A DNA stretch of 64,000 nt from a bacterium (GTDB lineage: Bacteria; UBA8248): NCBI GenBank assembly GCA_965199855.1, contig OZ241326.1:2211908-2275907 (forward strand). The letters run 5' to 3'. Positions within the stretch are counted from its first letter, which is position 1, and each line of letters starts with the position of its first letter. Shown here piece after piece: positions 515 to 57,829 of this stretch. The notes beneath the pieces were generated by a model. It was not told the origin of the DNA, made no database searches, and saw nothing but the letters and a program-made list of their open reading frames with translations. A program made the position numbers and the translations under genes.

Positions 515-4133
<3,619 letters not shown>

Positions 4134-4259
4134 TCGATATTTCGATTGGGTTGTTGTTCTTTGATACGCCGCTATAATCGGATCGAGCCGATCCTCCAGC
4201 TCGCTTCGGCTGACCAGAAACGCCTTGTTTTCATCGCAGGACCGGCGAAGATTGAAGCC

Positions 4260-6392
4260 TCATGTCCCTCCCGCCTCGACGGCTTCAATGAAGCGGGCGA
4301 GCTCCTCGCCGATGCCTTCCAGCTCGTTATTGTCTGTCGGTCTCCCCGCGGCGTCATAGCCGATATCCCCGGCTACCGCCATGAATACCGGAGAATCGCC
4401 CAATACGCTTCGCTTTCGCTCCGCATATTCCCGCTCCATGGTTTCCCGGAGCGCATCGATTTTTCCCCGGCATTCGGCGCCGACCCGCTTTTTCCATTCC
4501 CTATAGTCTTCGGACAGGCTCAACGCTTTGCCTTCCAGCCCTTCCGGATTGTCAAAGCCTCTGAGTTCCTTGATCCGCCGCTTCTTCTCCGCGTCAATCT
4601 CCCGCAACTGCTCCGGAAAATCATGCTCTTCCCTGATTTCGTCCCGTATCTCCGCTTTCCGGTTGCGGATCTCGGCGGTTGCTTCCGAAGTCCGCTTTTT
4701 CAGGAACAGCACCGAGGTTTTCACCCCCGCCCCTTTCGCCTGAAACGCGGTTTGGGGCATGGACGCCACCGCCACGAGGCGGAAATTCTCCTCCATGCCC
4801 TCCCGCGCGTATTGGAGGCTGGAGTTGGTCAGGATGCCGTCGGGTATGACGATCGCCAGATAGCCTCCCTCGGCGAGAAACCTGTGGCATTGCTCGATAA
4901 ACAGAATTTCGGAGCTCTGGCTGTCCCGGACTGTTTCCTTGCTCTTCGGGTTCAGCCAGTCGGCTTTCTTGAGCGCGTAATCGTAGTGGCGCATGTAGGC
5001 TTGCTCGGTTCGCTTGATCTGGGAGCCGAACGGCGGATTCGTGATGATGAAGTGGAAGCGTCCGTAAACGAATCCGTTGTTTCTCGTGAGAGAAAAAATA
5101 TCGTCAGCGGACATCAGCCCGTCGGCGGCGATCACGTTCGTATGGCCGTCATCGTGGAGAATCATGTTCATCTTGGCGGTTCTGGCGATTCGATCGTTGA
5201 TTTCGATGCCGAATATGTTTTTTTCCGCGAAGCTGCGCCAGTGCCTGTCATAGTCTCTTGATTCCGCCAGATCTGCTTCAAAATTCGGATAGTATTCACT
5301 CGCCTGCCGCCTGACCTTGTCAAGCGCGTGAAGCAGAAACCCGCCGCTGCCGCAGGAGGTATCCAGAACCAGCGAGTCATTGGTTATCGGCAGCGCGTCC
5401 ACGATGAACTTCACGATGGGGCGAGGGGTGAAGAACTGCCCGAACTCTCCACGAAAATAAGAACCCATGAAAGTTTCAAAGGCCTTGCCCCTGCTGTCCA
5501 GATCGGTTTTTCCAAAATCGACGCCTTCCAGATAGCCGACGACGGTGCGCAACTTTTCGCAGCCGAGGCGAATATCCTCCTGAAAGACTTCGGGGTCTTT
5601 TTGCCGCCCCTCGGCATACAGGGCGCGGACGCGCTTTTGCAGTCCCTTGTTCGTCTTGTCTTCCGTGCTTTCGGTGAACACCTGAAAATCGTAGGGTTCC
5701 CCCTTTCTCCTGGGCTTTTTCTCGTCCCACATTTTGCAGAAAATCAGCTTGTTCAACTCGTCGAAGGCTAGCGAGGGGTCGAGTTGCCCACCCCCCCAAA
5801 GCGCCTGATGCGCCTGTCTGAACCTTCTCGTCAGCGCGTCTTCCGTTATGGCTTCGAGCTCGAACAGCCTTTGTCCGTTGGCGGAACCCCCGCCCCGGGC
5901 GTATTTGAACCTGGCGAGCCGGCTGACGCCGTATTGCGGGATATCGGGAATGGGCAAGCGCTTCTTCGGCTCTTTTTCGGGAATCTCGAAGCAGGCGTCT
6001 TTTATTCGGGAGGTTACCCAGAAATACCTGGCCCGGACTGTTCCCGTGGCGGCGTAGCTGAAAGCCTGGGCGACGGCCTGCTCGAACTCGGCTTCGGAGA
6101 CGTCCTCCGCCTTGCACTCGACGACGATATGGGCGGATTCACGCTCATCGTCGTTATAGACGATAATATCCGCCTCTCTGGTGTCCGCGCCGATTTTTAC
6201 CGGAACGAACTGCTCTATGCGCTCCGGGGCGTAGCGATAAACCAGAACCAGTTTGAGGAACGTCTCCGCCTGGACGGACTCTTCCGGCCGCGCGTAATTT
6301 CGCCTCTTGCCCTGGCGAACGTAGGTGATGTATTTCCCGTCGTCATCAAACGCGATCAAGCCTTTGTCTATTCCTTCGCGCAACAGATCCAT
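4260..6392 (-). CDS. hsdM: Type I RM N6-adenine DNA methyltransferase HsdM, 710 aa, with an N-terminal HsdR_N-like PD-(D/E)xK domain and a C-terminal coiled-coil extension.
   Basis: N6_Mtase core with the ITNPPFG (motif IV, NPPF) and SAM-binding LDTSCGSGGFL (motif I). The first ~150 aa carry D…(D/E)xK (EADIIVYNDDERESAHIVVECK), resembling the HsdR N-terminal nuclease-like domain. No hsdR gene is adjacent. Confidence 0.85.
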   Translation of the reverse strand: MDLLREGIDKGLIAFDDDGKYITYVRQGKRRNYARPEESVQAETFLKLVLVYRYAPERIEQFVPVKIGADTREADIIVYNDDERESAHIVVECKAEDVSEAEFEQAVAQAFSYAATGTVRARYFWVTSRIKDACFEIPEKEPKKRLPIPDIPQYGVSRLARFKYARGGGSANGQRLFELEAITEDALTRRFRQAHQALWGGGQLDPSLAFDELNKLIFCKMWDEKKPRRKGEPYDFQVFTESTEDKTNKGLQKRVRALYAEGRQKDPEVFQEDIRLGCEKLRTVVGYLEGVDFGKTDLDSRGKAFETFMGSYFRGEFGQFFTPRPIVKFIVDALPITNDSLVLDTSCGSGGFLLHALDKVRRQASEYYPNFEADLAESRDYDRHWRSFAEKNIFGIEINDRIARTAKMNMILHDDGHTNVIAADGLMSADDIFSLTRNNGFVYGRFHFIITNPPFGSQIKRTEQAYMRHYDYALKKADWLNPKSKETVRDSQSSEILFIEQCHRFLAEGGYLAIVIPDGILTNSSLQYAREGMEENFRLVAVASMPQTAFQAKGAGVKTSVLFLKKRTSEATAEIRNRKAEIRDEIREEHDFPEQLREIDAEKKRRIKELRGFDNPEGLEGKALSLSEDYREWKKRVGAECRGKIDALRETMEREYAERKRSVLGDSPVFMAVAGDIGYDAAGRPTDNNELEGIGEELARFIEAVEAGGT

Positions 6393-6742
6393 TCGCTTCT
6401 CATTTTCAGGAGGGGCTCGACACTATACGGGGGACGGGAGGGCGGATTCGACCATGCCATGAAAGCGAACCCGGTCGCCCCTTCCATATCACGTTCGCGC
6501 GGCTGACGCCAACCCGATCGGCGGAAATTTTCGATTCCGATGGAGTTTCGCCCCTCGGCTGTGGTAGGGTGGCCGCGCGTCAGCGGGAGGCGCCGCCCTT
6601 GCTCTCGTCACAGCCGCTTCCCGGTTCTTCGCCCGCGAAACGGCGAACCGGCCCGAAAGGCCCGCCGCCCGCGCGCCGATGAGCAAAGTCCGCAGAATCA
6701 ACCCGTTGCGCTCTCCTCCCCCGGCCCGAGGCACGGCCCGCC

Positions 6743-11076: not shown

Positions 11077-11362
11077 GGCCGGGAAAAATCTCTCAGGGAA
11101 GGCGAATGGCGCGAATGCCGGAACCGCGTGACGTCAGCTGAAAGCACCGCCCCTCACCTTCGGTTCCCGCGCGGATGACGAAAAGCGACGCCGAAAGAGG
11201 CGCTGAACCCCCCGGCATCGGGCGAACACGCTATATCAGACTTCTCCGCGCCCGGTCAAATGGATTGCCCCCCGGGAACGCGCGGTGCTAGGATGCGCGA
11301 AGGGGCGCGCCTCGCTCACCCGCGCGCATTTCGCACCCGACGGAGCGGGATACCTTCAGCCC

Positions 11363-12760
11363 ATGCGTCGCCGCGGCCGAGACACCCTCATCCGCTTTTC
11401 CCTGCTGTCCGCCTTCGTCCTGTGCGCGCCGCCCGCGTCGGCGGAGAAGGAGCGCCCCTTCGGCGGACGCCTCATCATCGAAGCGGTCAGGAAGCTGCGG
11501 CCCTCCGTCGCGCATATCCGCGCGAAGCCGGGAGGCGCCGCGGCGAATCCCCTGCTCGACTTCTTCGGCAGGGGCAGGCGAAGGGAGGGCCCGCCCCGGT
11601 TCGATCAGGACGAGGCCGCCTACGGCGTAGGCGCGGGGATCATCGTCTCGAAAGAAGGGCACATCCTGACGAACCACCACGTCGTCAGGAACGCCCAGGA
11701 GATTCTGGTCAAACTCCACCGGGGCGAGGAATTCCCGGCCCGCCTGCTCGGCGTGGACGAGAAAACCGACCTCGCCCTCCTGAAGATCAAGCCTCCCGCG
11801 GACCTCCGGCCGGCAACTCTCGGCGATTCCGACAAAGCGGAGGTCGGCCAGTGGGTTCTGGCGATCGGCAGCCCTTTCGGCCTGGCGAATTCCGTATCCG
11901 TAGGCGTCATCAGCGGCAAGGAGCGGGATTTGAAGGAAGGCCCCTTTGACGAGTATCTCCAGACGGACGCCTCCATCAACCCGGGCAATTCCGGCGGGCC
12001 GCTCGCCGACGCGAAAGGCGCCGTCATCGGCGTCAACACGGCGATATTCTCCCGCGGCTCGCGCGCCTGGAGCCTGGGCGTCGGCTTCGCCATTCCGATA
12101 AACCAGGCCAGGGCCGTCATCGACTCCCTGCGCCACAGGGGCTATCCGATACGGGGCCGGCTGGGGGCGGCCGTGGCCGCCGTCCCCCCGAAGGAGGGGA
12201 AAGACCTGGGGCTGGCCCGCTCCCAGGGCGCGAAGCTCGCCGAGGTCGCGCGCGGCGGCCCCGCCCACCACGCCGGCCTGCGCCGGGGGGACGTGGTGGT
12301 CGAATTCGACGGCAAGCCGGTGAGCACCTGGCAGAGCCTTCCCCGCATCGTCGCCCGCGCGAAGCCGGATTCCCTCGTCCAGGTGAAGTTTTACCGCGAA
12401 AAGCGCCTGGAGAGCGTCTATGTCCGCCTGGGGAGCCGGCCCGAGGCGCCGCATTCCCGAAAGACGCCGGGCCGGACGAGCCTGGGCATGAAGGTCGAGG
12501 CGCTCACCCCGCACCTCGCCCGCCGCTTCGGGCTGGATTACGGCGAGAGCAAACTGGTGGTTTCCTCGATTCTGCGGGGCGGGGCGGCGGAGCGCGGCGG
12601 AATCAGGCCGGGCGACGAGATAGCGGAAGCGAACCACAAGCCCGTCCGGACGATAGAGGAGCTTCGGGAGGCCATCGACGCGTCCCGGCTCGACGGCTTC
12701 GTCCTCCTCCTTCTCAAGCGAAAAGGAACCAACCTCTTCGCCGCCCTCCAAATCAAATAG
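11363..12760 (+). CDS. htrA: Periplasmic serine endoprotease DegP/HtrA (trypsin domain plus two PDZ domains).
   Basis: Catalytic triad context (HILTNHHVV; DLALLKI; GNSGGPL). Two C-terminal PDZ-like regions. Signal peptide after MRRRGRDTLIRFSLLSAFVLCAPPASA. ORF track starts at 11285; the preferred ATG is at 11363. Confidence 0.85.
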   Translation: MRRRGRDTLIRFSLLSAFVLCAPPASAEKERPFGGRLIIEAVRKLRPSVAHIRAKPGGAAANPLLDFFGRGRRREGPPRFDQDEAAYGVGAGIIVSKEGHILTNHHVVRNAQEILVKLHRGEEFPARLLGVDEKTDLALLKIKPPADLRPATLGDSDKAEVGQWVLAIGSPFGLANSVSVGVISGKERDLKEGPFDEYLQTDASINPGNSGGPLADAKGAVIGVNTAIFSRGSRAWSLGVGFAIPINQARAVIDSLRHRGYPIRGRLGAAVAAVPPKEGKDLGLARSQGAKLAEVARGGPAHHAGLRRGDVVVEFDGKPVSTWQSLPRIVARAKPDSLVQVKFYREKRLESVYVRLGSRPEAPHSRKTPGRTSLGMKVEALTPHLARRFGLDYGESKLVVSSILRGGAAERGGIRPGDEIAEANHKPVRTIEELREAIDASRLDGFVLLLLKRKGTNLFAALQIK

Positions 12761-13113
12761 CGCCTTCAGGACAGGCCCGGGCCGGCGCCCGCCGAACGGA
12801 CGGCTTTCGCAGGGACAACCCCCGTGGTTGTCCCTCGCCGCGTTCGCGTCCCGACGACGCGCAACCATCCCGTAGGGGGCGTTCGGGAACGCCCCGCCGC
12901 CGCCGATGCGAATCTTTCCTGAAAACGGGCGGCCCCGGGGCCCCGCCCTTGCGGAACCGGCGCCCATGGGCGACCCACCCAAACGGGCGGTTCCCGAATT
13001 GCGGGGCGGCCTCGGGGAGGGGTCGCCCCTACGGAACCGTCGCCATCTCCCGCCGTCATTCCGGCGAAGGCCGGAATCCAGGGGATTGTGATCGTTCCCC
13101 ATCGTCAATGAGA

Positions 13114-13835
13114 GACAACCATAGGGGGTTGTTCCTGCGAAATGATGAAACCCGCGGCCCCATGCCGAAGGACGGGCGGGGCGCATGAATGCGCCCCCTA
13201 CGAAGGCGGGATCGCCGCCCGCCCCCGGAAAACCGGTTGCCTCGACCGTAGGGGACGCATTCATGCGTCCCGTTTCGATCGGTGGCCACGCGCGGGCGGT
13301 TCACGAACCGCCCCTACGGGAACCGTAGCCGCCCTCACCCATAGGGACGCCCCCCTGGGTCGCCCGACAATTCGGGAGCCGCCCGCGCGGGAAAATTCGC
13401 CGGGCGGAGGCGTTTCCCCGGGCGTTTGGAGAAGAACCGCCCGCTCGCCGAAAAGCCGCGCGTGAATGTCTACGAATTTCTGCAAAATCAGACAAATTCA
13501 CGGCCTTATCCCGCAAATAGAGAGCTGTTTTCCACCTTTTTAGAGACCCCTTTGACCATCCCGCCCGGTCCCCGATTCTTCCGTCTTCCTTCCCTCCGGA
13601 GGCGCAATTCCCCCACGCCGGAAATATAACCCGACCCGGCCGCCCCCGCGGAAGCGCAGATGCGCGCAAATGCGGGCAGGCGCGCGCGATTGTTCCACGT
13701 GGAACAATTCGGACGCGGAATTTTCGGAGGAAGCGTCCGGTTTTCGGCGCGGCCGCCGCTCCGCAAGCCTCGAAAAGGCGCGGTTCGCCCCGCCCGGCTC
13801 CGCTTTGCTGGCCATGCCCGCCGCCTACGCGCCGG
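13114..13835. repeat. Inverted repeat copy A (~722 bp), non-coding, hairpin-rich. Partner is at 20006..20726.
   Basis: Six-frame ORFs here have reverse-complement twins of identical amino-acid sequence in the 19970..20579 region (for example 13261..13485(-) = 20355..20579(+); 13426..13629(+) = 20211..20414(-)). That gives ~99-100% nucleotide identity in inverted orientation. Confidence 0.85.
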
Positions 13836-13952
13836 GAGGCTTCCGTCCCGCGCGCGCCGCCTCCGCCTGATTGACATTCGGGCGTGGTGTCGTAATCTGC
13901 GGGGCGTTTCGGGGCTACACGGGAGCGGACGAACGGACGGCGGGGAGCGGAC

Positions 13953-14603
13953 ATGAAGATTTTCATCGATACGGCGAGTCTGGAGGAAATCGAGGAGGCG
14001 GCCTCCACCGGCATCCTGGACGGCGTGACGACGAACCCCTCGCTCATCGCGAAGGAAGGCGCCGACCACCACGCGAGAATCAGGGAAATCTGCGGGCTGG
14101 TGGACGGGCCGGTGAGCGCGGAGGTGATCGCCGTGAAGTGGGAGGAGATGGTCGAGGAGGGGCGGGCGCTGGCCGCCATCCACGAGAACGTGGTGGTGAA
14201 GGTTCCGGTGGGCGTGGAGGGGCTGCGCGCCGTCAAGGCGCTGCGCGAGGAGAGCGTCGACACGAACGTCACCCTCATCTTCAGCCCCGCCCAGGCCATG
14301 CTGGCGGCGAAGGCGGGCGCCTCGTTCGTGAGTCCCTTCGTGGGGCGGCTGGACGACGTCTCAAACCCCGGCATGGAGATGGTGAGCGACATCGCCCGGA
14401 TTTTTCACAACTACGACTACGCCGCCCAGGTTCTGGTGGCGAGCGTGCGCTCGCCGATTCACCTGCTCGAGGCGGCGAAGATGGGGGCGGACGCGGCGAC
14501 GGTTCCCTTTCAGGTCATCGCCCAGCTGCTCAAGCATCCGCTGACGGATATCGGGCTGGAGAAATTCCTGGCGGACTGGCGCCGCGCCGGCGAGATGCGC
14601 TGA
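13953..14603 (+). CDS. tal: Transaldolase (short Tal / fructose-6-phosphate aldolase family).
   Basis: 216 aa. [13 protein letters not shown]…TTNPSL…VKVP, with the catalytic Lys context typical of small transaldolases. Confidence 0.9.
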
Positions 14604-14622
14604 CTTTCAGGGAGGTTCAGGG

Positions 14623-14853
14623 ATGATGCCGATGTATGAATTTCTGTGCGGAAGCTGCGAGAAGGATTTTGAGAAAATCGTGGCGTCCGTCGAGGCCGCC
14701 GACCGCGTGGAGTGTCCCGAATGCGGCTCGCGCGAGGCGCGCCGGAAACTCTCCCTGTTCGCCAAATCCGCATCGGGCGCCGCGGCCCAGGCCTCGGCCT
14801 TCAGCGGCTACTCCGCCGGCGGCGGCTGCGGCGGGGCGTGCTCGTGCCACTAG
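14623..14853 (+). CDS. FmdB-family zinc-ribbon protein (putative regulatory).
   Basis: 76 aa. CGSC…CPECG double CxxC zinc ribbon at the N-terminus, with a Gly/Ala/Cys-rich tail. Confidence 0.65.
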   Translation: MMPMYEFLCGSCEKDFEKIVASVEAADRVECPECGSREARRKLSLFAKSASGAAAQASAFSGYSAGGGCGGACSCH

Positions 14854-14937
14854 CCCCGCGGGGGCGCTGAATCCGCGCTTCCGCCGGGCCGATTCGCGCG
14901 CGATCCTTCGGGAATCTTTCAGCAGGGAGGAGAGACC

Positions 14938-16188
14938 ATGCCGCAAGAGGAGCAGGTCAGCGTCTTCGAGACCGCGAGCGCGCAGTTCGACGAGGCGGCG
15001 GCGCACGTCGATCTGGACGATGAGGTTCGCCACCTCCTCAAGACGCCCTTCCGCGAGGTGAAGGTAGAAATCCCCATCCGCAGGGACGACGGCTCTCTCG
15101 GCGTCTGGGAGGGATACCGCATCCAGTTCAACGGCGCGCGGGGGCCGTTCAAGGGCGGAATCCGCTACCACCACGAGGTGGACCCGGACGAGGTGCGCGG
15201 CCTCTCCGCGCTCATGGCGTGGAAGACGGCGCTCGTCAACATTCCGTTCGGGGGCGGCAAGGGCGGCATCTGCGTCAACGTGGGGGAGCTCAGCCGCTTC
15301 GAGCTGGAGCGGCTCACGAGAAAATACACCGCGCGCATCGGGCGCGTCCTGGGGCCCTACCGCGACATTCCCGCCCCCGACGTGAACACGAACGCGCAGG
15401 TGATGGCGTGGATTTTCGATGAATACAGCAGCCGCCACGGCTACGCGCCGGCCTGCGTCACGGGAAAGCCCGTGTCCATGGGCGGCTCCCCGGGGCGCGA
15501 GGCCGCCACCGGGCGGGGCGCCGTGATGGCGTTCGGGGAGGTCGCCAAAAAGGAGGGCTGGGAGCCCGCCACCATGACGGCGGCGATTCAGGGCTTCGGG
15601 AACGTGGGCGCCTTCGCCGCCAGGTTCATCGGCGATCTGGGGGTGAAGGTGGTGGCGATATCGGGCAGCCGGGGCGCCTGCTTCAACGGGGACGGCGTCG
15701 ACGTCGAGGCGGCCGCCGCCCACCGCAGGGAGCACGGGACGCTGGAGGGCCTCGCGGGAGCGGAGGAGATCACCAACGAGGAGCTTCTCGCCCTCGACGT
15801 GGACGTCCTGGTTCCGGCGGCTCTCGGCGGCGCGATTCACGCGGGCAACGCGGCGGACGTGAAGGCGCGCGTCATCGTGGAAGGGGCGAACGCTCCCGTA
15901 ACCGACCGGGGCGAGAAGACGCTGGCCGAGAGCGGCCGCGTCGTGGTGATACCCGACGTGCTGGCGAGCGCGGGCGGCGTCACGGTCTCCTACTTTGAAT
16001 GGGCGCAGAACATCCAGCAGTTCGCCTGGGACGAGGAGCGGGTGAACGCCGAGCTGGGCAGAATCATGGCGCGCGCCACGGCCGAGGTGCATGAGCTGGC
16101 GAAGGAGAAAGGCGTCTCGCTGCGCGCGGCGGCCTTCATCATCGCGATTGAAAGGGTGGCGGAGGCGGAGCGCCTTCGCGGCGTATAG
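14938..16188 (+). CDS. Glutamate dehydrogenase (Glu/Leu/Phe/Val dehydrogenase family).
   Basis: 416 aa. KGGIRYH, NIPFGGGKGG (active-site Lys box), and a GFGNVG Rossmann motif. Confidence 0.9.
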   Translation: MPQEEQVSVFETASAQFDEAAAHVDLDDEVRHLLKTPFREVKVEIPIRRDDGSLGVWEGYRIQFNGARGPFKGGIRYHHEVDPDEVRGLSALMAWKTALVNIPFGGGKGGICVNVGELSRFELERLTRKYTARIGRVLGPYRDIPAPDVNTNAQVMAWIFDEYSSRHGYAPACVTGKPVSMGGSPGREAATGRGAVMAFGEVAKKEGWEPATMTAAIQGFGNVGAFAARFIGDLGVKVVAISGSRGACFNGDGVDVEAAAAHRREHGTLEGLAGAEEITNEELLALDVDVLVPAALGGAIHAGNAADVKARVIVEGANAPVTDRGEKTLAESGRVVVIPDVLASAGGVTVSYFEWAQNIQQFAWDEERVNAELGRIMARATAEVHELAKEKGVSLRAAAFIIAIERVAEAERLRGV

Positions 16189-16214
16189 CGTCCGCCGCCC
16201 CGCTGGAGCTTTCG

Positions 16215-17129
16215 TTGGCTGGTCTCGTCATAGACGCCCGGGGCATCGAAAAATCCTTCGGAACCCTCCGGGCCGTCGCCGGCGTCTCGCTCCAGGTGGA
16301 GCCCGGAGAGTGCTTCGGCATTCTGGGCCCCAACGGCGCGGGCAAAACCACGACAATCAAGATGCTGCACGGCGCCGTTCAGCCCGACGCGGGCGTCCTG
16401 CGGGTGCTCGGCCTCGACGTGGCGACCCAGAGCCGGCTCGTTCGGGAGGGGATGGGCGTCGTATCGCAGGAGGACACGCTGGACCGCGATTTGACGGTAT
16501 ATGAGAACCTCTGGGTCTATGCGGGATTTTTCGGCATCTCGAGGAAGGCGTCGCTCTCCCGCATCGAGCATCTGCTCGACTTCCTGCAGCTTCGGGAAAA
16601 GTGGGACTCGAAGATCAAGACCCTCTCGGGCGGAATGAAGCGCCGCCTCCACATCGCGCGCGCCCTGATCCATGAGCCGAAGTTCCTGATTCTGGACGAA
16701 CCCACCACGGGCCTCGATCCGCAGGCGAGGCATCTCGTCTGGCGCAGGCTCCGGGAGCTCGGCGACCGGGGGCTGACCATTCTTCTCACCACCCATTACA
16801 TGGAAGAGGCGGCGCGGATGTGCGATCGCATCGGCATCATGGACGGGGGGAGATTTCTTCTCGAAGGCGCGCCGCAGGCGCTGGTGCGCGAACATGTGGG
16901 CGATGAGGCGTATGAACTCAAGGGCGGCGCGCCGCGGGAACTGCTCGACTCCCTGAAAAGCCTCCACGTCGGCGCCGAGGTCGCCGCGGACAGGCTGTAT
17001 CTCTACAGCCGCAACGGAGCGGGGCTGATGGAGCGCCTGATCGCCTCGGGGCGGAAGGATTTTCTGAGAAGGCCCGCGACCCTGGAGGATTTGTTCCTGC
17101 GGCTCACGGGCAGGGAATTGAGGGATTGA
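16215..17129 (+). CDS. ABC transporter ATP-binding protein (ABC-2 / NodI-DrrA type).
   Basis: Walker A GILGPNGAGKTT, signature LSGGMKRRL, Walker B LILDEPTTGLD. Confidence 0.85.
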   Translation: MAGLVIDARGIEKSFGTLRAVAGVSLQVEPGECFGILGPNGAGKTTTIKMLHGAVQPDAGVLRVLGLDVATQSRLVREGMGVVSQEDTLDRDLTVYENLWVYAGFFGISRKASLSRIEHLLDFLQLREKWDSKIKTLSGGMKRRLHIARALIHEPKFLILDEPTTGLDPQARHLVWRRLRELGDRGLTILLTTHYMEEAARMCDRIGIMDGGRFLLEGAPQALVREHVGDEAYELKGGAPRELLDSLKSLHVGAEVAADRLYLYSRNGAGLMERLIASGRKDFLRRPATLEDLFLRLTGRELRD

Positions 17130-17902
17130 CGCTCCTCCCCCAGGCTCCGAGCCGCCGCGCCCTCCGCGTCTGGGTTCGCCATCTGGTCTATTACCGCTCC
17201 TTCTATCTGGCGGAATGGGCGGGCAATCTGGGGGAGCACGTTCTGTGGCTCGTGGCGTTCGGCTACGGGCTGGGCAGGCTGGTGCCGAGCCTGGACGGCG
17301 TCTCATACGCGCAGTTCATCGGCCCCGGGCTGATGGTTTCCGTCGCGATGTGGAACGCGACGTATGAATCCACCTACGGCGCCTATTCGAGAATGCGGAT
17401 TCAGAACATCTACGAGTCCATGCTGATGGCCCCGCTCACGGTGGGCGACATCGTGCTGGGCGATCTTCTCTGGTGCGCGAGCCGCGCGCTGATCGGCTCG
17501 ACGCTGATGCTGCTCGTCCTGAGCCTGTTCGGGCTGGTCGGCTCGTGGTGGGCGGCGGCGATCCTTCCGGTTCTGTTCGTCGAGGCGGTGATGTTCGCGG
17601 CCCTGGGGCTGATCGCGACCTCGCTGGCGCCCAGCTTCTCGTTCTTCAACTTTTACTTCTCCGCCGTCGTCATGCCCATGTTTTTCTTCGCGGGCGCCCT
17701 GTTTCCCATCAAGGGCCTGCCGGCGTGGGTGGAGCGCATATCCGACGCCCTCCCGCTGACCCACGCCGTGAGAATCTCGCGCGGCCTGTTCCTTTACGGG
17801 CGGGTCGAGCATTTTCTCTGGCACTTTTCCTTCCTGCTCGGCTTCACGCTCCTGTTTCTCGCGGTCGCCTGCTTTCTGGTGGGCAGGCGCATGGCGGAAT
17901 GA
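17126..17902 (+). CDS. ABC-2 family transporter permease.
   Basis: 258 aa, six predicted TM helices, ABC-2 (NodJ-like) architecture. Start overlaps the ATPase stop. Confidence 0.75.
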   Translation: MTLLPQAPSRRALRVWVRHLVYYRSFYLAEWAGNLGEHVLWLVAFGYGLGRLVPSLDGVSYAQFIGPGLMVSVAMWNATYESTYGAYSRMRIQNIYESMLMAPLTVGDIVLGDLLWCASRALIGSTLMLLVLSLFGLVGSWWAAAILPVLFVEAVMFAALGLIATSLAPSFSFFNFYFSAVVMPMFFFAGALFPIKGLPAWVERISDALPLTHAVRISRGLFLYGRVEHFLWHFSFLLGFTLLFLAVACFLVGRRMAE

Positions 17903-18870
17903 GCGTGGGCGCCGCGGCGAAAATCCTGCATCCGCCGGAGCCGTTCCTGTTCCATGAGAGTCTGCTGCGCTTTCGCGCGTCGAGCGGGGAGCTCGTCAAT
18001 TCCTACGCGGACGGGGCGTATCGCAGGGTGGTGGAGACCGCCGCCGGCGCGCTGGTTCTCCTGGAGGCCAGGAGCGGGGAGGAGGGGCGAGGCGGCCCGA
18101 TTCGGCTTCAGATGACCGCCGAGGGACGGATGAGCGAATCGCTCCAAGGCGCGGGGCTGGACGCCATCAGGCACATTCTGGCTTTTGATCTCGATTTGAA
18201 GCCGTTTTACGGGATGGCGGGGCGCGACGCCGACCTGGCGCCGATTGCGAGGAAATTCAGGGGTCTCAGGCCGGTGCGCTACCCGAGCGCGTTCGAGGCG
18301 CTCGTTACGGCGATTACGGCGCAGCAGGTGAACCTGACCTTCGCCGGGACGATACGCGGGCGCATGGTGAAGCGATGGGGCGGAAAGCTGCGCGTCGGCG
18401 GACGGACGCGCTACGCCTTTCCGCGCCCGGAGCGCCTGGCGCGGGCGCGCGTCTCCACCCTGCGCGCCATGCAGTTCTCGGAGCGAAAGTCGGAATACGT
18501 GATTGGCGTGGCGCGCGCCGCCCTGGAAGGACGGCTGGACGAGGGCGAGCTGCGCGCTCTGCCCGTTGAGGAGGCGGTGGCCCGGCTCGCCGGAATACGG
18601 GGCGTGGGCCGCTGGACGGCGGAGCAGACGCTGTTTCGGGCGCTTGGCCGCGTGGAGGTTTTCCCCGGGGGCGACCTGGGGGTGCGGAAGGTCGTGGCGC
18701 GCTATTGCTTCGGAGAGGAGCGCGTGGACGAGGAGCGCGCGCGCGGGCGGGCGGACGCATGGCATCCCTGGGCTTCGCTGGCGACGACCTATCTGTTCGC
18801 CGCGTGGCGCGCGGGCGTTGCGCCCGCGGGCGAAGCGAAACGGCGCATCGGGAATCGGGCGCGCGGATGA
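17899..18870 (+). CDS. DNA-3-methyladenine glycosylase II-like (AlkA / HhH-GPD base-excision glycosylase).
   Basis: 323 aa from MSVGAAAKIL… HhH-GPD region (…LAGIRGVGRWTAEQTLFRALGR… with catalytic Asp context …FPGGDLG…). The ATG overlaps the permease stop (ATGA). The ORF track lists a longer out-of-frame-overlapping 17473 start that is unlikely. Confidence 0.7.
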   Translation: MSVGAAAKILHPPEPFLFHESLLRFRASSGELVNSYADGAYRRVVETAAGALVLLEARSGEEGRGGPIRLQMTAEGRMSESLQGAGLDAIRHILAFDLDLKPFYGMAGRDADLAPIARKFRGLRPVRYPSAFEALVTAITAQQVNLTFAGTIRGRMVKRWGGKLRVGGRTRYAFPRPERLARARVSTLRAMQFSERKSEYVIGVARAALEGRLDEGELRALPVEEAVARLAGIRGVGRWTAEQTLFRALGRVEVFPGGDLGVRKVVARYCFGEERVDEERARGRADAWHPWASLATTYLFAAWRAGVAPAGEAKRRIGNRARG

Positions 18871-20015
18871 GCGGCTTTCGGGCCTCCATCGAACGGCGGG
18901 AAGAAGAGCTGCTGGCGCCCTGCGCGGCGCGCAGCGCCGAGAGTCTCGGGCGAAGGCACCCGGAAGCCGAGCACGGGATGCGGACGGCGTTTCAGCGCGA
19001 TCGCGACCGGATCATCCACACGCAGGCCTTCCGGAGGCTTGAATACAAGACCCAGGTCTTCGTGAACCACGAAGGGGACCATTACCGGACGCGCCTGACG
19101 CACACCATAGAGGTGAGCCAGATCGCGCGCTCCATCGCCCGCGCGCTCTCCCTGAACGAAGACCTCGCCGAAGCGGTCGCGCTCGCGCACGATTTGGGCC
19201 ACCCCCCCTTCGGCCACGCCGGGGAGAAGGTTCTGGACGCCCTCATGGAGGAGCGCGGCGGGTTCGAGCACAACCTGCAGGCGCTGCGGATCGTCGAGGC
19301 GCTGGAGAGGCGCTACCCCGCCTTTCCGGGCCTGAACCTGACGTGGGAGACGCGCGAGGGAATCATCAAGTATCTGGATCGCTATGACGGCCCGATGCCC
19401 CGGGGGCTGACGAACGCGATCGCCCCCGGCCTGGAGGCCCAGGTGGTCGACGCGGCGGACGAGATCGCCTACAACAACCACGACCTGGACGACGGCCTCT
19501 CCTCCCGGCTGTTCGGCCTTGAAGACTTGCGGGACGCCCGCCTTTGGCGCGAACACCACGAAAACTCGAAGAAAGCCTTTCCCGAAGCTCCCCGGCGGGA
19601 GCGCAAGCACGACGTCATCCGCCGCATCATCAACGCGCAGGTTCAGGACATCATCGCGTCCGCGCGCGAGCGCGTTCGGCGCCGGGGGCTGCGCCGCATC
19701 TCGGACGTGCGGGAAGGCGGGCATGACGCGGTTGTCTTCAGCGAGGAGATGCGCGGGAAGAACGCCGAGCTCAAGCGCTTCCTGATGGAGCGGATGTACC
19801 GGAACGAGCGGGTGCTGAGACTGGAGGAAAGCGCCCGGGAAACGCTGAGCGGGCTGTTTCGCCTCTACGTCGCCGAGCCTCGCAGGATACCGGAGCACGC
19901 CCGCAGGCGCGAGGAAACGGACGGCCGGCATCGAATGGTCTGCGACTACGTCGCCGGCATGACGGACCGCTACGCCCTCCAGCAGCACGAGCGGTGGCTG
20001 GGCGCCGGCGCGTAG
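18867..20015 (+). CDS. dgt: dGTP triphosphohydrolase-like protein (HD domain).
   Basis: 382 aa from MSGFRASIERR… Contains RTRLTHTIEVSQIARSIA and HDLGHPPFGH (HD motif) in a Dgt-like fold. The ATG overlaps the alkA-like stop (ATGA). The 3' end runs ~10 nt into IR copy B. Confidence 0.85.
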   Translation: MSGFRASIERREEELLAPCAARSAESLGRRHPEAEHGMRTAFQRDRDRIIHTQAFRRLEYKTQVFVNHEGDHYRTRLTHTIEVSQIARSIARALSLNEDLAEAVALAHDLGHPPFGHAGEKVLDALMEERGGFEHNLQALRIVEALERRYPAFPGLNLTWETREGIIKYLDRYDGPMPRGLTNAIAPGLEAQVVDAADEIAYNNHDLDDGLSSRLFGLEDLRDARLWREHHENSKKAFPEAPRRERKHDVIRRIINAQVQDIIASARERVRRRGLRRISDVREGGHDAVVFSEEMRGKNAELKRFLMERMYRNERVLRLEESARETLSGLFRLYVAEPRRIPEHARRREETDGRHRMVCDYVAGMTDRYALQQHERWLGAGA

Positions 20016-20726
20016 GCGGCGGGCATGGCCAGCAAAGCGGAGCCGGGCGGGGCGAACCGCGCCTTTTCGAGGCTTGCGGAGCGGCGGCCGCGCCGAAAAC
20101 CGGACGCTTCCTCCGAAAATTCCGCGTCCGAATTGTTCCACGTGGAACAATCGCGCGCGCCTGCCCGCATTTGCGCGCATCTGCGCTTCCGCGGGGGCGG
20201 CCGGGTCGGGTTATATTTCCGGCGTGGGGGAATTGCGCCTCCGGAGGGAAGGAAGACGGAAGAATCGGGGACCGGGCGGGATGGTCAAAGGGGTCTCTAA
20301 AAAGGTGGAAAACAGCTCTCTATTTGCGGGATAAGGCCGTGAATTTGTCTGATTTTGCAGAAATTCGTAGACATTCACGCGCGGCTTTTCGGCGAGCGGG
20401 CGGTTCTTCTCCAAACGCCCGGGGAAACGCCTCCGCCCGGCGAATTTTCCCGCGCGGGCGGCTCCCGAATTGTCGGGCGACCCAGGGGGGCGTCCCTATG
20501 GGTGAGGGCGGCTACGGTTCCCGTAGGGGCGGTTCGTGAACCGCCCGCGCGTGGCCACCGATCGAAACGGGACGCATGAATGCGTCCCCTACGGTCGAGG
20601 CAACCGGTTTTCCGGGGGCGGGCGGCGATCCCGCCTTCGTAGGGGGCGCATTCATGCGCCCCGCCCGTCCTTCGGCATGGGGCCGCGGGTTTCATCATTT
20701 CGCAGGAACAACCCCCTGTGGTTGTC
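20006..20726. repeat. Inverted repeat copy B (~721 bp), reverse complement of 13114..13835.
   Basis: Mirrored ORF set identical in amino-acid sequence to copy A. Boundaries were located by manual alignment: inner ends at ccggcgcgtagg, outer ends at the GACAACC…GGTTGTC hairpin. Confidence 0.85.
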
Positions 20727-20760
20727 CTTCGCCGCGTTCGCCAGTCCGGGCGTTTCCCCC

Positions 20761-21042
20761 TTACCCGAACCGCCCGGCATTCAGCCGCCAATAGACCTCC
20801 GTCCCCTTGAGCGCGGCGTTCTCTTTGGCGTGATGCCACGGCGTCTTGCCCTCTTTATCCTCCGCCGCGGGATCGGCTCCGGCGGCGAGCAACGCTTCCG
20901 CGACCGCGGGGGTTTTGCTGAACTTCGCCGCCGCCACATGCAGGGGCGTCCGTCCATCCTTGATCCGCGCGTTCGGGTTCGCCCCGGCGGCGAGCAAGCC
21001 TCCTCCGCCGCCCGCTCCCCCGCCGAAGAAGAAGTAAGGCAT
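20761..21042 (-). CDS. Small ankyrin-repeat protein.
   Basis: 93 aa. DGRTPLHVAA…AEALLAAGADPAAEDKEGKTPWHHA matches two ANK repeat consensus units, followed by a Gly-rich tail. Confidence 0.65.
   Translation of the reverse strand: MPYFFFGGGAGGGGGLLAAGANPNARIKDGRTPLHVAAAKFSKTPAVAEALLAAGADPAAEDKEGKTPWHHAKENAALKGTEVYWRLNAGRFG

Positions 21043-21921: not shown

Positions 21922-21925
<4 letters not shown>
21476..21925 (-). CDS. DUF3465-family secreted protein.
   Basis: 149 aa. Signal peptide, then …[38 protein letters not shown]…[19 protein letters not shown]…[11 protein letters not shown], which matches DUF3465 conserved blocks from memory. Confidence 0.55.
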
Positions 21926-25173
<3,248 letters not shown>

Positions 25174-29290: not shown

Positions 29291-29324
29291 AAAAAAAACG
29301 CCACGCCCCGGGGGGCATGGCGTT
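29291..29324 (-). terminator. Intrinsic terminator / attenuator hairpin in the pyrR 5' leader (about 40 nt upstream of the pyrR start).
   Basis: RNA-sense (minus strand) AACGCCAUGCCCCCCGGGGCGUGGCG followed by UUUUUUUU. It forms an ~10-bp GC-rich stem (one G-U pair) plus an 8-U tract. Confidence 0.65.
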
Positions 29325-29369
29325 CGGACGATGAGCGAAAAGACACCGGGCATCCGCGCTTCCTCCTTC

Positions 29370-29383
29370 GCCGCCTCACGGGA
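29370..29383 (-). promoter_or_regulatory. Candidate PyrR-binding loop (PyrR RNA element) in the pyr operon leader.
   Basis: RNA sense GUCCCGUGAGGCGG matches the PyrR binding-loop core consensus UCCNGNGAGGYU. It lies ~50 nt upstream of the attenuator hairpin, the arrangement of Bacillus-type pyr attenuation. Confidence 0.5.
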
Positions 29384-29487
29384 CGGCATTAAAGGGGAAT
29401 CCCACGCTGTTCTCGTTCGGCGGCGGGCGCGCCGAGACTATTTGGCCGAACCTAGCAGTATTCTCCGCCGGGGGCAAGCGGAATTCC

Positions 29488-40566: not shown

Positions 40567-40748
40567 CCCCGAAGCTCCCCGGAGAAGCGAGGCGCGCGCC
40601 GGAATCCCCGGCGAGGCCCGGCGCAATCCCGAATCGCCGGGACGCGGCGCCGCTCCGCCGGGCGCGTTGACACGCAATCGCCGCAGGGTGGATCATGGCG
40701 GGCGTCGAGCGCAACCATCATCCCAAACCAGCCTGCGGGAGCCGCGAG

Positions 40749-41921
40749 ATGAGCCTGCAAACCGAAGCCGCGCTTCAGTTCGACCTGGACGACACGCAAA
40801 AGATGCTTCGCCGGACGGTGCGGGAGCTCTCCGAGCGCCACATCGCCCCGCGCGCCGCCGAAATCGACGAGAACGAGGAATACCCCGAAGACATCTATCA
40901 GATGCAGAAGGAGCACGGCCTCCTCGGCATCTTCTTCCCCGAGGAATACGGCGGCGGCGGAATGGGCTTTCTGGGCGGCTGCGTCGCCATCGAGGAGATC
41001 GCGCGCTTCTGCTCGAACTCCCCGCTCTTCATCGTGCTCAACATGCTCTCGAGCCGCGTCATCGACCTGAGCGGCACGCCGGAGCAGAAGACGCATTATA
41101 TGACGGGCCTCGCCAGGGGCGAACTTCGGGGCTCCTACGCCCTCACGGAGCCCCACGCGGGCTCCGACGCCGGGAACATCCGCACGCGCGCCGTCCGGGA
41201 GGGCGAGGAGTGGGTCATCAACGGGACGAAATGCTTCTGCACGGGACCCGACAAGGCGGACTTCATCACCGTCGCCGCCAAGACCGACCCCGGCGCGGGC
41301 GCGCGGGGCATCACCTACTACGTCGTCCCCACGGACGCGCCCGGCTTCAGCATCGACAAGCACGAGCGCAAGATGGGGATGCGCGGCATCTCGACCTGCA
41401 TGCTGCGCTTCGACAGCGTGGCCGTGCCCCTCGAGAACCAGATCGGCGAGCTGAACCAGGGCTTCAGAACCGCGATGATCGGCTTCAACCAGATGCGGCC
41501 CGCCATCGGCGCGCGCGCGGTCGGCCTCGCCCAGGGGTGCCTCGACTACGCCGCGGGCTACGCGAAGGAGCGCGAGGCCTTCGGGAAGCCCATCGCCCGC
41601 CACCAGGCCGTCCAGTTCATGCTCGCCGACATGTTCATGGACATCGAGGCGTCGCGCCTGCTCGTCTATCGCGCCGCCTCGATGGTGGACGCCGGACAAA
41701 TCGGCAAGGAGAACGCCCGGTATTTCTCGACGGCCAAGACCTACGCGGCCGACATGGCGATGAAGTGCGCGATAGACGGCATCCAGGTGCTGGGCGGGGC
41801 GGGCTACATGAAGGATCACCCGCTCGAGCGCTTCATGCGCGACGCCAAGCAGATCCAGATCGTCGAGGGGACGAGCCAGATTCAGCGGATCATCATCGCC
41901 CGCAACCTGCTCGACCTCTAG
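40749..41921 (+). CDS. Acyl-CoA dehydrogenase (paralog 1).
   Basis: From MSLQTEAALQF… ACAD N-terminal, middle and C-terminal domains (…YALTEPHAGSD…GQKCFCTG…QIVEGTSQIQR…). Confidence 0.85.
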   Translation: MSLQTEAALQFDLDDTQKMLRRTVRELSERHIAPRAAEIDENEEYPEDIYQMQKEHGLLGIFFPEEYGGGGMGFLGGCVAIEEIARFCSNSPLFIVLNMLSSRVIDLSGTPEQKTHYMTGLARGELRGSYALTEPHAGSDAGNIRTRAVREGEEWVINGTKCFCTGPDKADFITVAAKTDPGAGARGITYYVVPTDAPGFSIDKHERKMGMRGISTCMLRFDSVAVPLENQIGELNQGFRTAMIGFNQMRPAIGARAVGLAQGCLDYAAGYAKEREAFGKPIARHQAVQFMLADMFMDIEASRLLVYRAASMVDAGQIGKENARYFSTAKTYAADMAMKCAIDGIQVLGGAGYMKDHPLERFMRDAKQIQIVEGTSQIQRIIIARNLLDL

Positions 41922-41933
41922 GAGCGCGCGGAG

Positions 41934-43103
41934 GTGGGGCCGGGGGCGGAGCCGCCCGCCGCGTTCGGGCTGAGCCGGGCGCAGCGAGCGCTGGGAGAGA
42001 GGGTCTATGCGCTGAGCCGCCGCCGCGTCGCGCCCCGCGCCGCCGACATCGACGAAAGCGGGGAATACCCCGAGGATATTTTCCAGCTCCTGAAGTCCCG
42101 CGGCCTCCTCGGCCTCTACGTCCCCGAAGAATACGGCGGGGCGGGCCTCGGCGTCCTGGAGACGTGCGTCGCCATCGAGCAGATGGCGCGCTTCTGCTCG
42201 AACTCTCCCCTTTTCTTCTCCGTCCACCTGCTCGCCACCCGCGCCGTCGCCATAGGCGGAACCGGGGCGCAGAAGAGCGTCTGGCTCCGCGGCGTAGCCC
42301 GGGGCGAGCTGCGCCCCGCCTTCTCGCTCACCGAGCCGCACGCGGGCTCCGACGCCGCGAACATATCGGCGCGCGCGGCGCGGGAGGGGGACTCGTGGGT
42401 CATCAACGGCCAGAAGTGCTACTGCACCGGCGCGAGCGTCGCCGACTTCCTCACCGTGGCGGCGAAGACCGAGGCCGGGGCGGGGGCGCGCGGCGTCTCC
42501 TTCTTCATCGTTCCCAAGGGCGAATTCCGGGTGGGCCGCCGCGAGAGGAAGATGGGGATGCGGGGAATCCCCACCTGCGAGGTGTTTTTGGAGAACGCCC
42601 ACGTCCCCCTCGAAAACATCATCGGCGATCGGGCGACGGGCTTCAGAACCGCCATGCTCGGCTTCAACCAGGCGCGGCCCGCCATCGGCGCGCGCGCGGT
42701 CGGCCTCGCCCAGGGGTGCCTCGACCACGCCGCGGGCTACGCCAAGGAGCGCGAGGCCTTCGGGAAGCCCATCGCCCGCCATCAGGCCGTCCAGTTCATG
42801 CTCGCCGACATGTTCATGGACGTCGAGGCGTCGCGCCTGCTCGTTTACCGCGCCGCCTCGATGGTGGATAATGGGCGCTATCAAAAGGAGGACGCGCATT
42901 TCATCTGCGCCGCGAAGTGCTTCGCGTCCGACGCGGCCATGAAGGCGGCCGTGGACGCGGTTCAGACCCTGGGCGGGGCGGGCTATACGAGGGATCACCC
43001 GCTCGAGCGGTTTATGAGAGACGCCAAGCAGCTGCAAATCATCGAGGGGACGAACCAGATTCAGCGCATGGCGATCGCCCGGAATCTGCTGGGCCTGAAC
43101 TGA
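41934..43103 (+). CDS. Acyl-CoA dehydrogenase (paralog 2, tandem duplicate).
   Basis: 389 aa. Long stretches identical to paralog 1 (RPAIGARAVGLAQGCLD…AAGYAKEREAFGKPIARHQAVQFMLADMFMD). Confidence 0.85.
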   Translation: MGPGAEPPAAFGLSRAQRALGERVYALSRRRVAPRAADIDESGEYPEDIFQLLKSRGLLGLYVPEEYGGAGLGVLETCVAIEQMARFCSNSPLFFSVHLLATRAVAIGGTGAQKSVWLRGVARGELRPAFSLTEPHAGSDAANISARAAREGDSWVINGQKCYCTGASVADFLTVAAKTEAGAGARGVSFFIVPKGEFRVGRRERKMGMRGIPTCEVFLENAHVPLENIIGDRATGFRTAMLGFNQARPAIGARAVGLAQGCLDHAAGYAKEREAFGKPIARHQAVQFMLADMFMDVEASRLLVYRAASMVDNGRYQKEDAHFICAAKCFASDAAMKAAVDAVQTLGGAGYTRDHPLERFMRDAKQLQIIEGTNQIQRMAIARNLLGLN

Positions 43104-55751: not shown

Positions 55752-56726
55752 TCAAGGCGTCAGATTCACCTTGCCCAGAAACTTTTCGCCCAGCAGAAGC
55801 TCGTGGGAATCGTTCGCCCGCTCCAGGGGAAGTTCCCGCCCGACGTGGGGCTTGACGGCGCCTCTCTCCAGCAGGGGACGCAGGCGCTTGAGGATGCCCG
55901 GGACGAGCGGATTCAGATTCCCCGAGGAGAGCGCGAGAATCCTGGCGTCGCGGCCCATGGCCGCCGGCAGGGAAATCGCCGCGTCGGGCCCCTTGCCCGT
56001 CCCCGTTCCGACGACGACGATTCGGCCGTTGACGGCGATGAGCTCCAGGTCCGCGGGCAGGTTCTCGCAGGCCGCGGTTTCGACGACCACGTCCGCGCCG
56101 CGTCCGGCACTCAGCTCCATGACGCGCCCGGGGACGCTCTCCTCCCTGTAGTTGACGACCGCCCCGGCGCCCGCCGCGAGGCAGAAATCCGCCTTCTCCT
56201 TCGAGCTCGCGGTGGCGAATACCCGGCAGCCCATCGCGCGCGCCAGCTGAATCGCCAGGTGGCCCACGCCGCCCGCGCCCCCCTGGACGAGGACGCAGTC
56301 GCCCGGCGCCGCCTCTCCCTTGACGACCAGGGCGTTCCAGGCCGTGAGAAGCGGGATGGGCAGGGCGGCGCCCTCGGCGAAGGACATCGCGTCCGGGAGC
56401 CTCCCCGTGGAGGCCGCGGACAGGAGCGCCTTCCCGGCGTATGCCCCCGTCAGGGCGCGGCCCCACACCCGATCCCCCGGGGCGAACGCATCGACGCCCT
56501 CGCCCACCGCCTCCACCTCGCCGGCTACGTCCGTCCCGCACGTGTAGGGCGGGCGCATCTCGCGGGCGCGCGGATGCTTCCCCGAACGAATGGCGATTTC
56601 CAGGGGATTCACCCCGGCGGCCGCCACGCGCGCGAGAATTTCGCCCGCGCCGGGCCGCGGCTCCTCCGCGTCTTCGAGAACCATGGGATGCTCAAGTCCG
56701 AACCGCGTCACCCGCACCGCCTTCAT
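55752..56726 (-). CDS. NADPH:quinone oxidoreductase / zinc-type ADH-like MDR protein (paralog 1).
   Basis: 324 aa. GroES-like N-terminal and Rossmann domain VLVQGGAGGVG. Confidence 0.85.
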   Translation of the reverse strand: MKAVRVTRFGLEHPMVLEDAEEPRPGAGEILARVAAAGVNPLEIAIRSGKHPRAREMRPPYTCGTDVAGEVEAVGEGVDAFAPGDRVWGRALTGAYAGKALLSAASTGRLPDAMSFAEGAALPIPLLTAWNALVVKGEAAPGDCVLVQGGAGGVGHLAIQLARAMGCRVFATASSKEKADFCLAAGAGAVVNYREESVPGRVMELSAGRGADVVVETAACENLPADLELIAVNGRIVVVGTGTGKGPDAAISLPAAMGRDARILALSSGNLNPLVPGILKRLRPLLERGAVKPHVGRELPLERANDSHELLLGEKFLGKVNLTP

Positions 56727-57733: not shown

Positions 57734-57829
57734 CAGCCGCTTCGCTCCTCCGTTCGGGAAATCGCCCCGCAAGCCGCCGGACGACAAAAGAGACCTGAAC
57801 CATATCCCATAACCGCGCGCGGGCGAAGC

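Follow-up and report, generated by a model that had tools for sequence, protein, structure and literature searches.

Repetitive extragenic palindromes, or REPs, are small DNA hairpins carrying a GTAG or CGTC tag, a known kind of bacterial repeat that Y1 transposases are thought to spread. In the defining sections of PMC3733652, REPs of the GTAG superfamily have a GTAG, GYAG or GTRG tag, stems of 6-13 bp and loops of 2-4 nt; they occur in head-to-head or tail-to-tail pairs and in clusters, and their sub-families differ by complementary changes in the stem. The same sections describe the CGTC-1 type, with a CGTC tag, an AT-first 8-bp stem, a 4-nt loop and a CCA tail, and give no dedicated transposase for the CGTC superfamily. 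'Canonical long REPs', which have three G-C pairs at the foot of the stem, accompany subclass 2.4 of the TnpA_REP enzymes, or group 4 of the tyrosine transposases associated with REPs (RAYTs), in the corresponding sections of PMC6006769 and PMC5581495. Here we describe the intergenic gap between degP and tal in a 64,000-nt stretch of contig OZ241326.1 (assembly GCA_965199855.1, lineage UBA8248), hereafter the window. Very probably, this gap is a mosaic REP cluster similar to the bacterial interspersed mosaic elements (BIMEs), composed mostly of GTAG-superfamily units and one CGTC-1 unit, with a 722-nt inverted duplicate and a 6.2-kb segment flipped by recombination. The REPs themselves are of a known kind; what is unusual is that part of the cluster is mirrored around a flipped 6.2-kb block of housekeeping genes.

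The gap (12761-13952, 1,192 nt) separates degP (11285-12760, + strand), a DegP/HtrA-type protease gene, from tal (13953-14603, + strand), a transaldolase gene according to Pfam. It lacks the GC bias at third codon positions that is strong in every flanking gene, and is therefore taken as non-coding. Seven perfect hairpins with a stem of at least 8 bp lie within 12811-13708, versus about 33 in the remaining ~62 kb (~0.5 per kb). Composition and hairpin counts thus bear out an earlier note on this DNA, which had described dense palindromic hairpins in a non-coding gap of ~1.2 kb. A GTAG directly abutting a perfect hairpin is found 11 times in the window, against 0.49 ± 0.66 expected from 100 dinucleotide shuffles (maximum 2); four units of the gap and three copies in its mirrored arm make up seven of these 11. 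A scan of the gap for promoter and terminator consensus sequences returned no sites; its hairpins are thus not T-tailed terminators of the classical kind. In the window the cluster is downstream of degP, and when the locus has its ancestral orientation, described below, it lies between the convergent genes degP and dgt: its position is extragenic, like that of GTAG REPs in general, which typically follow gene 3' ends.

Four canonical GTAG units, named a, c, d and e, share one anatomy, namely a GTAG tag, a 9-bp stem starting with GGG, a 2-nt loop and the complementary arm. Unit a (12872-12895, + strand) consists of GTAG + GGGGCGTTC GG GAACGCCCC (GTAGGGGGCGTTCGGGAACGCCCC); units c (13178-13201, − strand), d (13248-13271, + strand) and e (13294-13317, − strand) read GTAGGGGGCGCATTCATGCGCCCC, GTAGGGGACGCATTCATGCGTCCC and GTAGGGGCGGTTCGTGAACCGCCC, respectively. 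The 9-bp stems with their 2-nt loops are perfect, at 12876-12895, 13178-13197 (where GGGGCGCATGAATGCGCCCC is located), 13252-13271 and 13294-13313, and an unpaired GTAG abuts the stem in 4/4 units. In tag, stem length, GGG foot and loop, they are like the canonical long GTAG REPs; as a superfamily, GTAG REPs are palindromic units of 20-40 bp.

One stem position distinguishes c from d, on both sides (G-C versus A-T), and the two units form a tail-to-tail heterodimer with the tags inward and a spacer of 46 nt. The inverted pair of ~25 bp claimed earlier is found here, at 13177-13202 and 13247-13272: its halves of 26 nt are 92% complementary and 44 nt apart, and folded as DNA the pair reaches -40.4 kcal/mol (z = -5.08). 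Like the REP doublets forming hairpins (REPINs) of Pseudomonas fluorescens (PMC3116915), c and d are two inverted REPs that a short spacer joins into one long hairpin (13177-13272). Unlike them, they constitute the only doublet of the window, besides its mirrored copy, their halves differ at a compensated position, and the REP sequence is different. The octamer CCCTACGG/CCGTAGGG, also reported as repeated, occurs seven times in the window against 1.37 expected, a number reached in 0/100 shuffles; four copies lie in the gap, two in its mirrored copy, and one (26588) is unrelated.

The GACAACC...GGTTGTC hairpins, of which at least three had been claimed, are found, with slightly corrected coordinates, at 12811-12835, 13114-13135 and 20705-20726. 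The first, REP H1 (12809-12833, + strand), joins a GCAG tag to a GGACAACC / GGTTGTCC hairpin and forms with its flanks a ~45-nt unit, TTTCGCAGG...TCGCCGCGTTCGC. REP H2 (13114-13138, − strand), inverted relative to H1, is where the left arm of the inverted repeat terminates on its outer side; the two have flanks in common that are conserved outside the hairpin, again like REPINs. The GCAG on these H hairpins is a GYAG variant of the tag, so that they make up a GCAG-tagged sub-family of the GTAG superfamily, and a GTAG-tagged homologue is found at 4120-4145 of locus L116, introduced below. All three motif types listed in the earlier note are REPs.

One unit belongs to the other superfamily. At 13054-13080 (+ strand), CGTC + ATTCCGGC + GAAG + GCCGGAAT + CCA has the CGTC tag, AT-first 8-bp stem, 4-nt loop and CCA tail of CGTC-1 REPs, such as Neisseria dRS3 in the treatment of this type in PMC3733652. 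A BLAST search of the gap against plasmids returned only a weak match, to N. gonorrhoeae/Neisseria repeats, which later made sense as CGTC-1/dRS3. In contrast to the described CGTC-1 REPs, the unit is present as a single copy in the window, inside a GTAG cluster; further copies occur in L115, L278, L279 and L276, all introduced below. The remainder of the cluster is degenerate or nested. Positions 12927-13032 (− strand) hold GGGCGG..CCGCCC+TTGC, a truncated GGGCGGTTCCCGAA, and GGGCGGCC..GGTCGCCC+CTAC with the tail GGAACCGTCGCC; positions 13340-13389 (+ strand) hold REP-like units with ATAG+GGACGCC..GGTCGCCC and are also the inverted partner of 12984-13017 (82% complementary). With several REP types in alternating orientation in one long, strain-variable intergenic region, the cluster is like the BIMEs of Escherichia coli and the intergenic mosaics of Neisseria; unlike these, it has no defined linker motifs or regular spacing.

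The family extends beyond this locus. The genome collection was scanned with one pattern, the tail motif CCCCTACGG-AACCGT-GCC, which gave 42 single matches, mostly chance or coding; only two of them, the 8-kb loci L115 and L116 on large contigs, were informative. In both, units of the sub-families seen here are clustered (among them GTAGGGGCCGCATACATGCGGCCC, GGGCGCTTCACGAAGCGCCCCTACGGAACCGTCGCC, one unit like H and CGTC-ATTCCGGC units), in different gene contexts, mnmE/opuA in one and DUF169/ankyrin genes in the other. DegP homologues led to two relatives, L278 and L279 (DegP 72-74% identical; contigs of 4.2 and 3.9 Mb), in which REPs of these sub-families cluster at several further intergenic positions. 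The DegP cluster containing L278 includes proteins named as Nitrospinota/Nitrospinae. The stem sub-families CGCAT..ATGCG, TTC..GAA, GGACAACC and CGTC-ATTCCGGC are common to the window and to the intergenic loci of L115, L116, L278 and L279. A loose REP pattern run against viral contigs gave scattered single matches only.

In the two relatives, the clusters are placed at 18300-19100 and 930-1300 of L279 and at 18900-21000 and 1100-1200 of L278. The stems of their GTAG units are GGACAGG, CGCAT and the AT-rich CAGACATATATGTCTG, and CGTC-ATTCCGGC units are present as well. One cluster is upstream of tal, and one lies between sucC-like and fumarase genes in both genomes.

For metagenomes, the pattern was derived from unit e: 26 nt, of which four positions were left free and 22 bases specified. 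At least 120 contigs matched, with GC contents of 0.37-0.71. Among the matches listed, the two free stem positions are Watson-Crick in 126/131 cases (G-C 74, A-T 38, C-G 12, T-A 2), versus ~43% expected from column frequencies; these positions covary. About 44% of the matches listed also carry a 5' GTAG that the pattern did not request, forming 28-nt 'double-foot' palindromes. Across 14 units drawn from window, relatives and metagenomes, 8/9 stem pairs vary on both sides, and the tag and the foot G-C pair are invariant; this count is partly circular, since the units were chosen as hairpins, and the metagenome covariation test is not. Paired stem changes between sub-families, pairs and clusters are all features of described GTAG REPs.

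This pattern of variation bears on another proposal of the earlier note, a protein-binding array. The palindromes of 20 bp are near-perfect and stand several in succession, as might be expected of operators for a dimeric DNA-binding protein, a regulator or a nucleoid component, unrelated to transposases; published descriptions of E. coli BIMEs also include binding of IHF and gyrase. An operator would conserve base identity, however, and here the pairing is conserved and the base identity is not: 8/9 stem positions vary by paired changes around a fixed tag and foot. The family moreover occurs in organisms that differ widely, with REPs embedded in genes for Y1 transposases, and its copies vary between strains. 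We therefore regard an operator array as very unlikely.

The embedding in transposase genes emerged from the metagenome contigs, where ORFs (open reading frames) within 1.2 kb of the listed matches were clustered to find recurrent genes. One family recurs near the REPs, at 10 loci by clustering and 12 by tblastn among ~120 listed (L158, L161, L177, L195, L200, L205, L212, L214, L219, L242, L249 and L264). Its ORFs carry the motifs YDYS..GAYFVT, MPNH.H and WQR.YY.H, 4/5 of them exceed the threshold of Y1_Tnp in Pfam, and in NCBIfam they match 'REP-associated tyrosine transposase' best, with E-values of 1e-16 to 3e-21. A sequence search of the PDB with one of these RAYT-like ORFs returned no match. 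Within the genes, a REP sits in frame right after the HUH motif, where it is translated into peptides such as GGSRTAPT and VGAIHESP, and additional REPs often abut the gene ends. An in-frame REP within the transposase gene is the pattern given for TnpA_REP subclass 2.4 in the pertinent part of PMC6006769; the metagenome relatives are like the REPs of this subclass both in this respect and in their double-foot forms.

By analogy with characterised REPs, the units would form hairpins where DNA is single-stranded at the replication fork. A cognate HUH/Y1 enzyme (a RAYT, or TnpA_REP) would then recognise tag and stem, cleave and rejoin the strand, and seed new copies. If transcribed, the REPs could also serve as hairpins at mRNA 3' ends. 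The link of this particular cluster to a RAYT is inferred from its family.

Comparison with relatives and strains indicates how the cluster arose. In L278 and L279, the gene order is lepA (− strand), degP (+ strand), then dgt...tal on the minus strand, with degP and dgt convergent. The orthologous degP-dgt spacer, which the earlier note had wished to see compared, has only 87-94 nt there and holds no REPs. A scaffold of another strain of the window's species (L001) has 1,069 nt between degP and dgt, comprising the outer REP cluster and one arm of the inverted repeat. The REP-rich DNA is thus a lineage-specific expansion of a short spacer: REPs would have enlarged a ~90-nt convergent spacer to ~1.07 kb in this species. 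A blastn search of the repeat against the relatives matched only repeat units and the tal-proximal stretch, and short matches between the repeat and the relatives' spacers (GAAATGATG, CGCAAATGCGGG) were discarded as no better than chance.

The cluster is still changing between strains. A strain whose DegP is 99% identical (L276) lacks a 238-nt block that holds c, d and e, with a short direct repeat, CCCGCG, at the block edges. The same strain has a single intact REP (GGGCGGTTCACGAACCGCCCCTAC) where the window carries ~85 extra nt of nested REP-like sequence. Large metagenome scaffolds of the window's species also stop here, L151/L277 (scaffold_1431) and L276 (scaffold_4) ending 97 nt past degP, just after H1, or inside the arm; the REP cluster is thus a recurrent break point of short-read assemblies.

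A structured RNA was the remaining option of the earlier note; the region could accordingly encode a non-coding RNA with a defined structure, or serve tal as a cis-regulatory leader. It lies upstream of tal in the window and, when the suggested folding check was made, the whole region folded strongly as RNA (z = -5.35 versus shuffles). This fold energy is accounted for by independent local palindromes. No Rfam family reached its gathering threshold in the gap, where the best sub-threshold score was 28.9 bits against a gathering score of 84, and permissive thresholds gave nothing credible in the gap either. The gap sequence is missing from the orthologous position of the relatives, while a short stretch beside tal and outside the inverted repeat (13860-13900) is conserved with L279. 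Blocks are present or absent between 99%-identical strains, and the ancestral orientation puts the outer cluster between convergent 3' ends, not upstream of tal. Taken together, these points make an RNA or leader highly improbable. Since the conserved 13860-13900 stretch is outside the repeat, tal keeps its own upstream region in both orientations. The REP/BIME-like family, which the earlier note had named alongside the two options set out above, is the one supported, by unit anatomy, recurrence in related genomes and metagenomes, stem covariation and the RAYT-like link.

The earlier note had also reported that the gap is mirrored. This mirroring is a 722-nt inverted repeat, 13114-13835 and 20005-20726, whose arms were reported as 100% complementary; on reading, there is a single mismatch, in a hairpin loop. 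As claimed, hairpins stand at the outer ends: the arm ends fall within the GACAACC REPs H2 and H3 (20702-20726). The GACAACC hairpin being itself palindromic, the true junction of the repeat is not placeable more finely than the hairpin. The right arm carries further REP copies at 20523-20546, 20569-20592 and 20639-20662.

Between the left arm (13114-13835) and the right arm (20005-20726) lies a segment of 6,169 nt (13836-20004, + strand) with tal, a Zn-ribbon gene, gdh, an ABC ATPase, an ABC-2 permease, an HhH-GPD glycosylase and dgt. The right arm includes the last 10 nt of dgt, that is, two and a half codons and the TAG stop. The dgt of this species ends two residues later than in L279 and one later than in L278, its TAG being inside the repeat, within GCGTAGG. 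Published work observes that GTAG termini often supply stop codons, and the tag-like GTAG whose TAG stops dgt echoes this.

The inverted repeat itself is real, and the left arm is also found in the independent assemblies L001-L004. The contigs L003-L007 (~6,170-6,600 nt) have their ends on the arm boundaries or slightly within them, L005-L007 spanning 13835-20004; L002 continues across the left arm as far as the beginning of the right one, where it ends; L003 and L004 each hold parts of both arms. Both arms are held by L001, with 728 nt identical to each other.

Two further elements of the repeat were noted. A perfect 20-bp palindrome, ATTGTTCCACGTGGAACAAT, occurs in both arms (13689-13708 and 20132-20151) and is invariant across aligned strains; it has no GTAG or CGTC tag, is not REP-like, and may be a candidate protein-binding site. 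An AT-richer block of ~100 nt (13450-13570, mirrored at ~20270-20390) is the part of the gap best conserved across strains. For this block we found no significant RNA fold on either strand, no promoter consensus and no homologue in the relatives.

What the earlier note had overlooked is that, compared with the ancestral gene order, the segment between the arms is inverted. In the window, degP is co-directional with tal...dgt, whereas in L001, L278 and L279 degP converges on dgt; as L001 and both relatives carry the segment the other way round, the arrangement of the window is the derived one. GC skew was tried as a pointer to the ancestral orientation and was uninformative, since here it tracks the coding strand.

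Recombination between long inverted repeats flips the DNA that they enclose, as in the flip-flop of plastid inverted repeats, or between inverted rRNA operons or copies of insertion sequences. The locus resembles these cases in that near-identical arms bracket a segment seen in both orientations. It differs in its arms, which are 722 nt of non-coding REP-rich DNA, and in its segment, 6.2 kb of housekeeping genes; switching within a population is here only a candidate. A domain search of the genes in and beside the segment found no recombinase, invertase or transposase, which speaks against a site-specific switch; the repeats, at 722 nt, are also unlike the short specific recombination sites of such switches. 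With arms this long and no recombinase nearby, RecA-type recombination between the arms is the likely mechanism of the flip.

Long near-identical inverted repeats around a discrete segment could also be the terminal repeats of a composite mobile element carrying tal-dgt, or the parts of a programmed invertase switch. Yet two relatives have the same genes beside degP without the repeats, the cargo consists of housekeeping genes, and the domain search found none of the enzymes that such a system needs in or beside the segment. The arms being identical, tal moreover has the same 840 nt upstream either way. We give hardly any credence to this explanation.

Several observations weigh against a REP cluster with a recombination-flipped segment. 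Within the 64-kb window, the REPs are confined to the degP-tal gap and its mirrored locus, a low copy density for GTAG REPs (one locus in 64 kb). The NCBIfam scores of the RAYT-like ORFs, 61-76 bits, are under the equivalog cut-off of 80. A tblastn search for the RAYT-like gene, covering the window plus 58 kb of related loci, found none, so the RAYT link for this genome rests on metagenome contigs of other organisms; here the locus departs from GTAG REPs that have a cognate transposase. Where no reads span the repeats, an assembler may output a segment flanked by inverted repeats in either direction. In L003 and L004, the partial arms are no more than ~94% alike.

Given the last two points, the inverted orientation of the window and the perfect identity of its arms could be assembly products. 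A graph of the form flank-repeat-segment-repeat-flank permits both paths, the only other contig spanning an arm (L001) has the opposite orientation, and L003/L004 indicate that identical arms are not universal. Look-ups of the exact proteins of lepA and dgt yielded no additional arm-spanning contig, and those of the window's degP and ankyrin proteins yielded no record. The repeat, on the other hand, is real: several samples yielded contigs that stop at or near its edges, and the inner ends of both arms are found together in single contigs. The relatives are present as contigs of 3.9-4.2 Mb, and a contig of more than 1 Mb contains the exact tal protein of the window; these lengths suggest long reads, which would resolve a 722-nt repeat and therefore count against an artefact. 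An assembly origin, which is live for the orientation only, appears rather unlikely to us. That the arms are perfectly identical in the window and in L001 could reflect recent conversion, a collapsed repeat or, for metagenome contigs, mixed strains. Concerted evolution of the arms was dropped as a firm claim, the ~94% likeness in L003/L004 possibly itself resulting from mixed strains.

With the flip by recombination as the preferred reading, the sequence of events would be as follows. After the REPs had expanded the spacer, a 722-nt stretch bounded on its outer side by a REP hairpin would have been duplicated, inverted, beyond the tal-dgt segment. Homologous recombination between the two arms would then have flipped the 6.2-kb segment in the genome of the window. 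A bolder version, which we find doubtful, holds that the inverted pair of GACAACC REPs seeded the 722-nt duplication, that this duplication is now a substrate for recombination by which the tal-dgt operon flips between two orientations in natural populations, and that conversion keeps the arms alike. Template switching or break-induced copying starting in the hairpin would, in that case, have made the inverted duplication. If this were true, the flip would change which neighbour, degP or the ankyrin gene, reads through into the operon.

Elsewhere in the window, an island of low GC content at ~2850-6400 (GC 0.47-0.57) is a restriction-modification locus, with an HSDR_N_2/N6_Mtase/Eco57I gene and a Methylase_S specificity gene. 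It varies between strains, with two genes (710 and 381 aa) in L151/L276 and one fused gene of 957 aa in L152. Two pairs of tandem paralogues encode acyl-CoA dehydrogenases (40695-41921 and 41934-43103, with long stretches of 75-87% nucleotide identity) and zinc-type alcohol dehydrogenases (55752-56726 and 56759-57787). Rfam places a PyrR binding site at 29291-29399 (− strand; 56.3 bits, the gathering score being 54), near carB (21922-25173), a pyrimidine-related gene.

For annotation, an oddly long and hairpin-rich gap thus becomes ordinary REP DNA, and the REP cluster and the arms explain why short-read assemblies of the organism break at these points. The GTAG and CGTC superfamilies are extended to an uncultured, Nitrospinota-related lineage, which is not among the hosts named in the relevant sections of the GTAG REP surveys (PMC3733652, PMC6006769, PMC5581495). 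The locus also offers a natural example of REP turnover, with blocks gained and lost beside a flanking gene that is 99% identical and with a 90-nt spacer grown to ~1 kb. Finally, with its inverted duplication bounded by REPs and enclosing an inverted housekeeping segment, the locus gives a concrete instance in favour of the idea that REPs promote chromosomal rearrangement.

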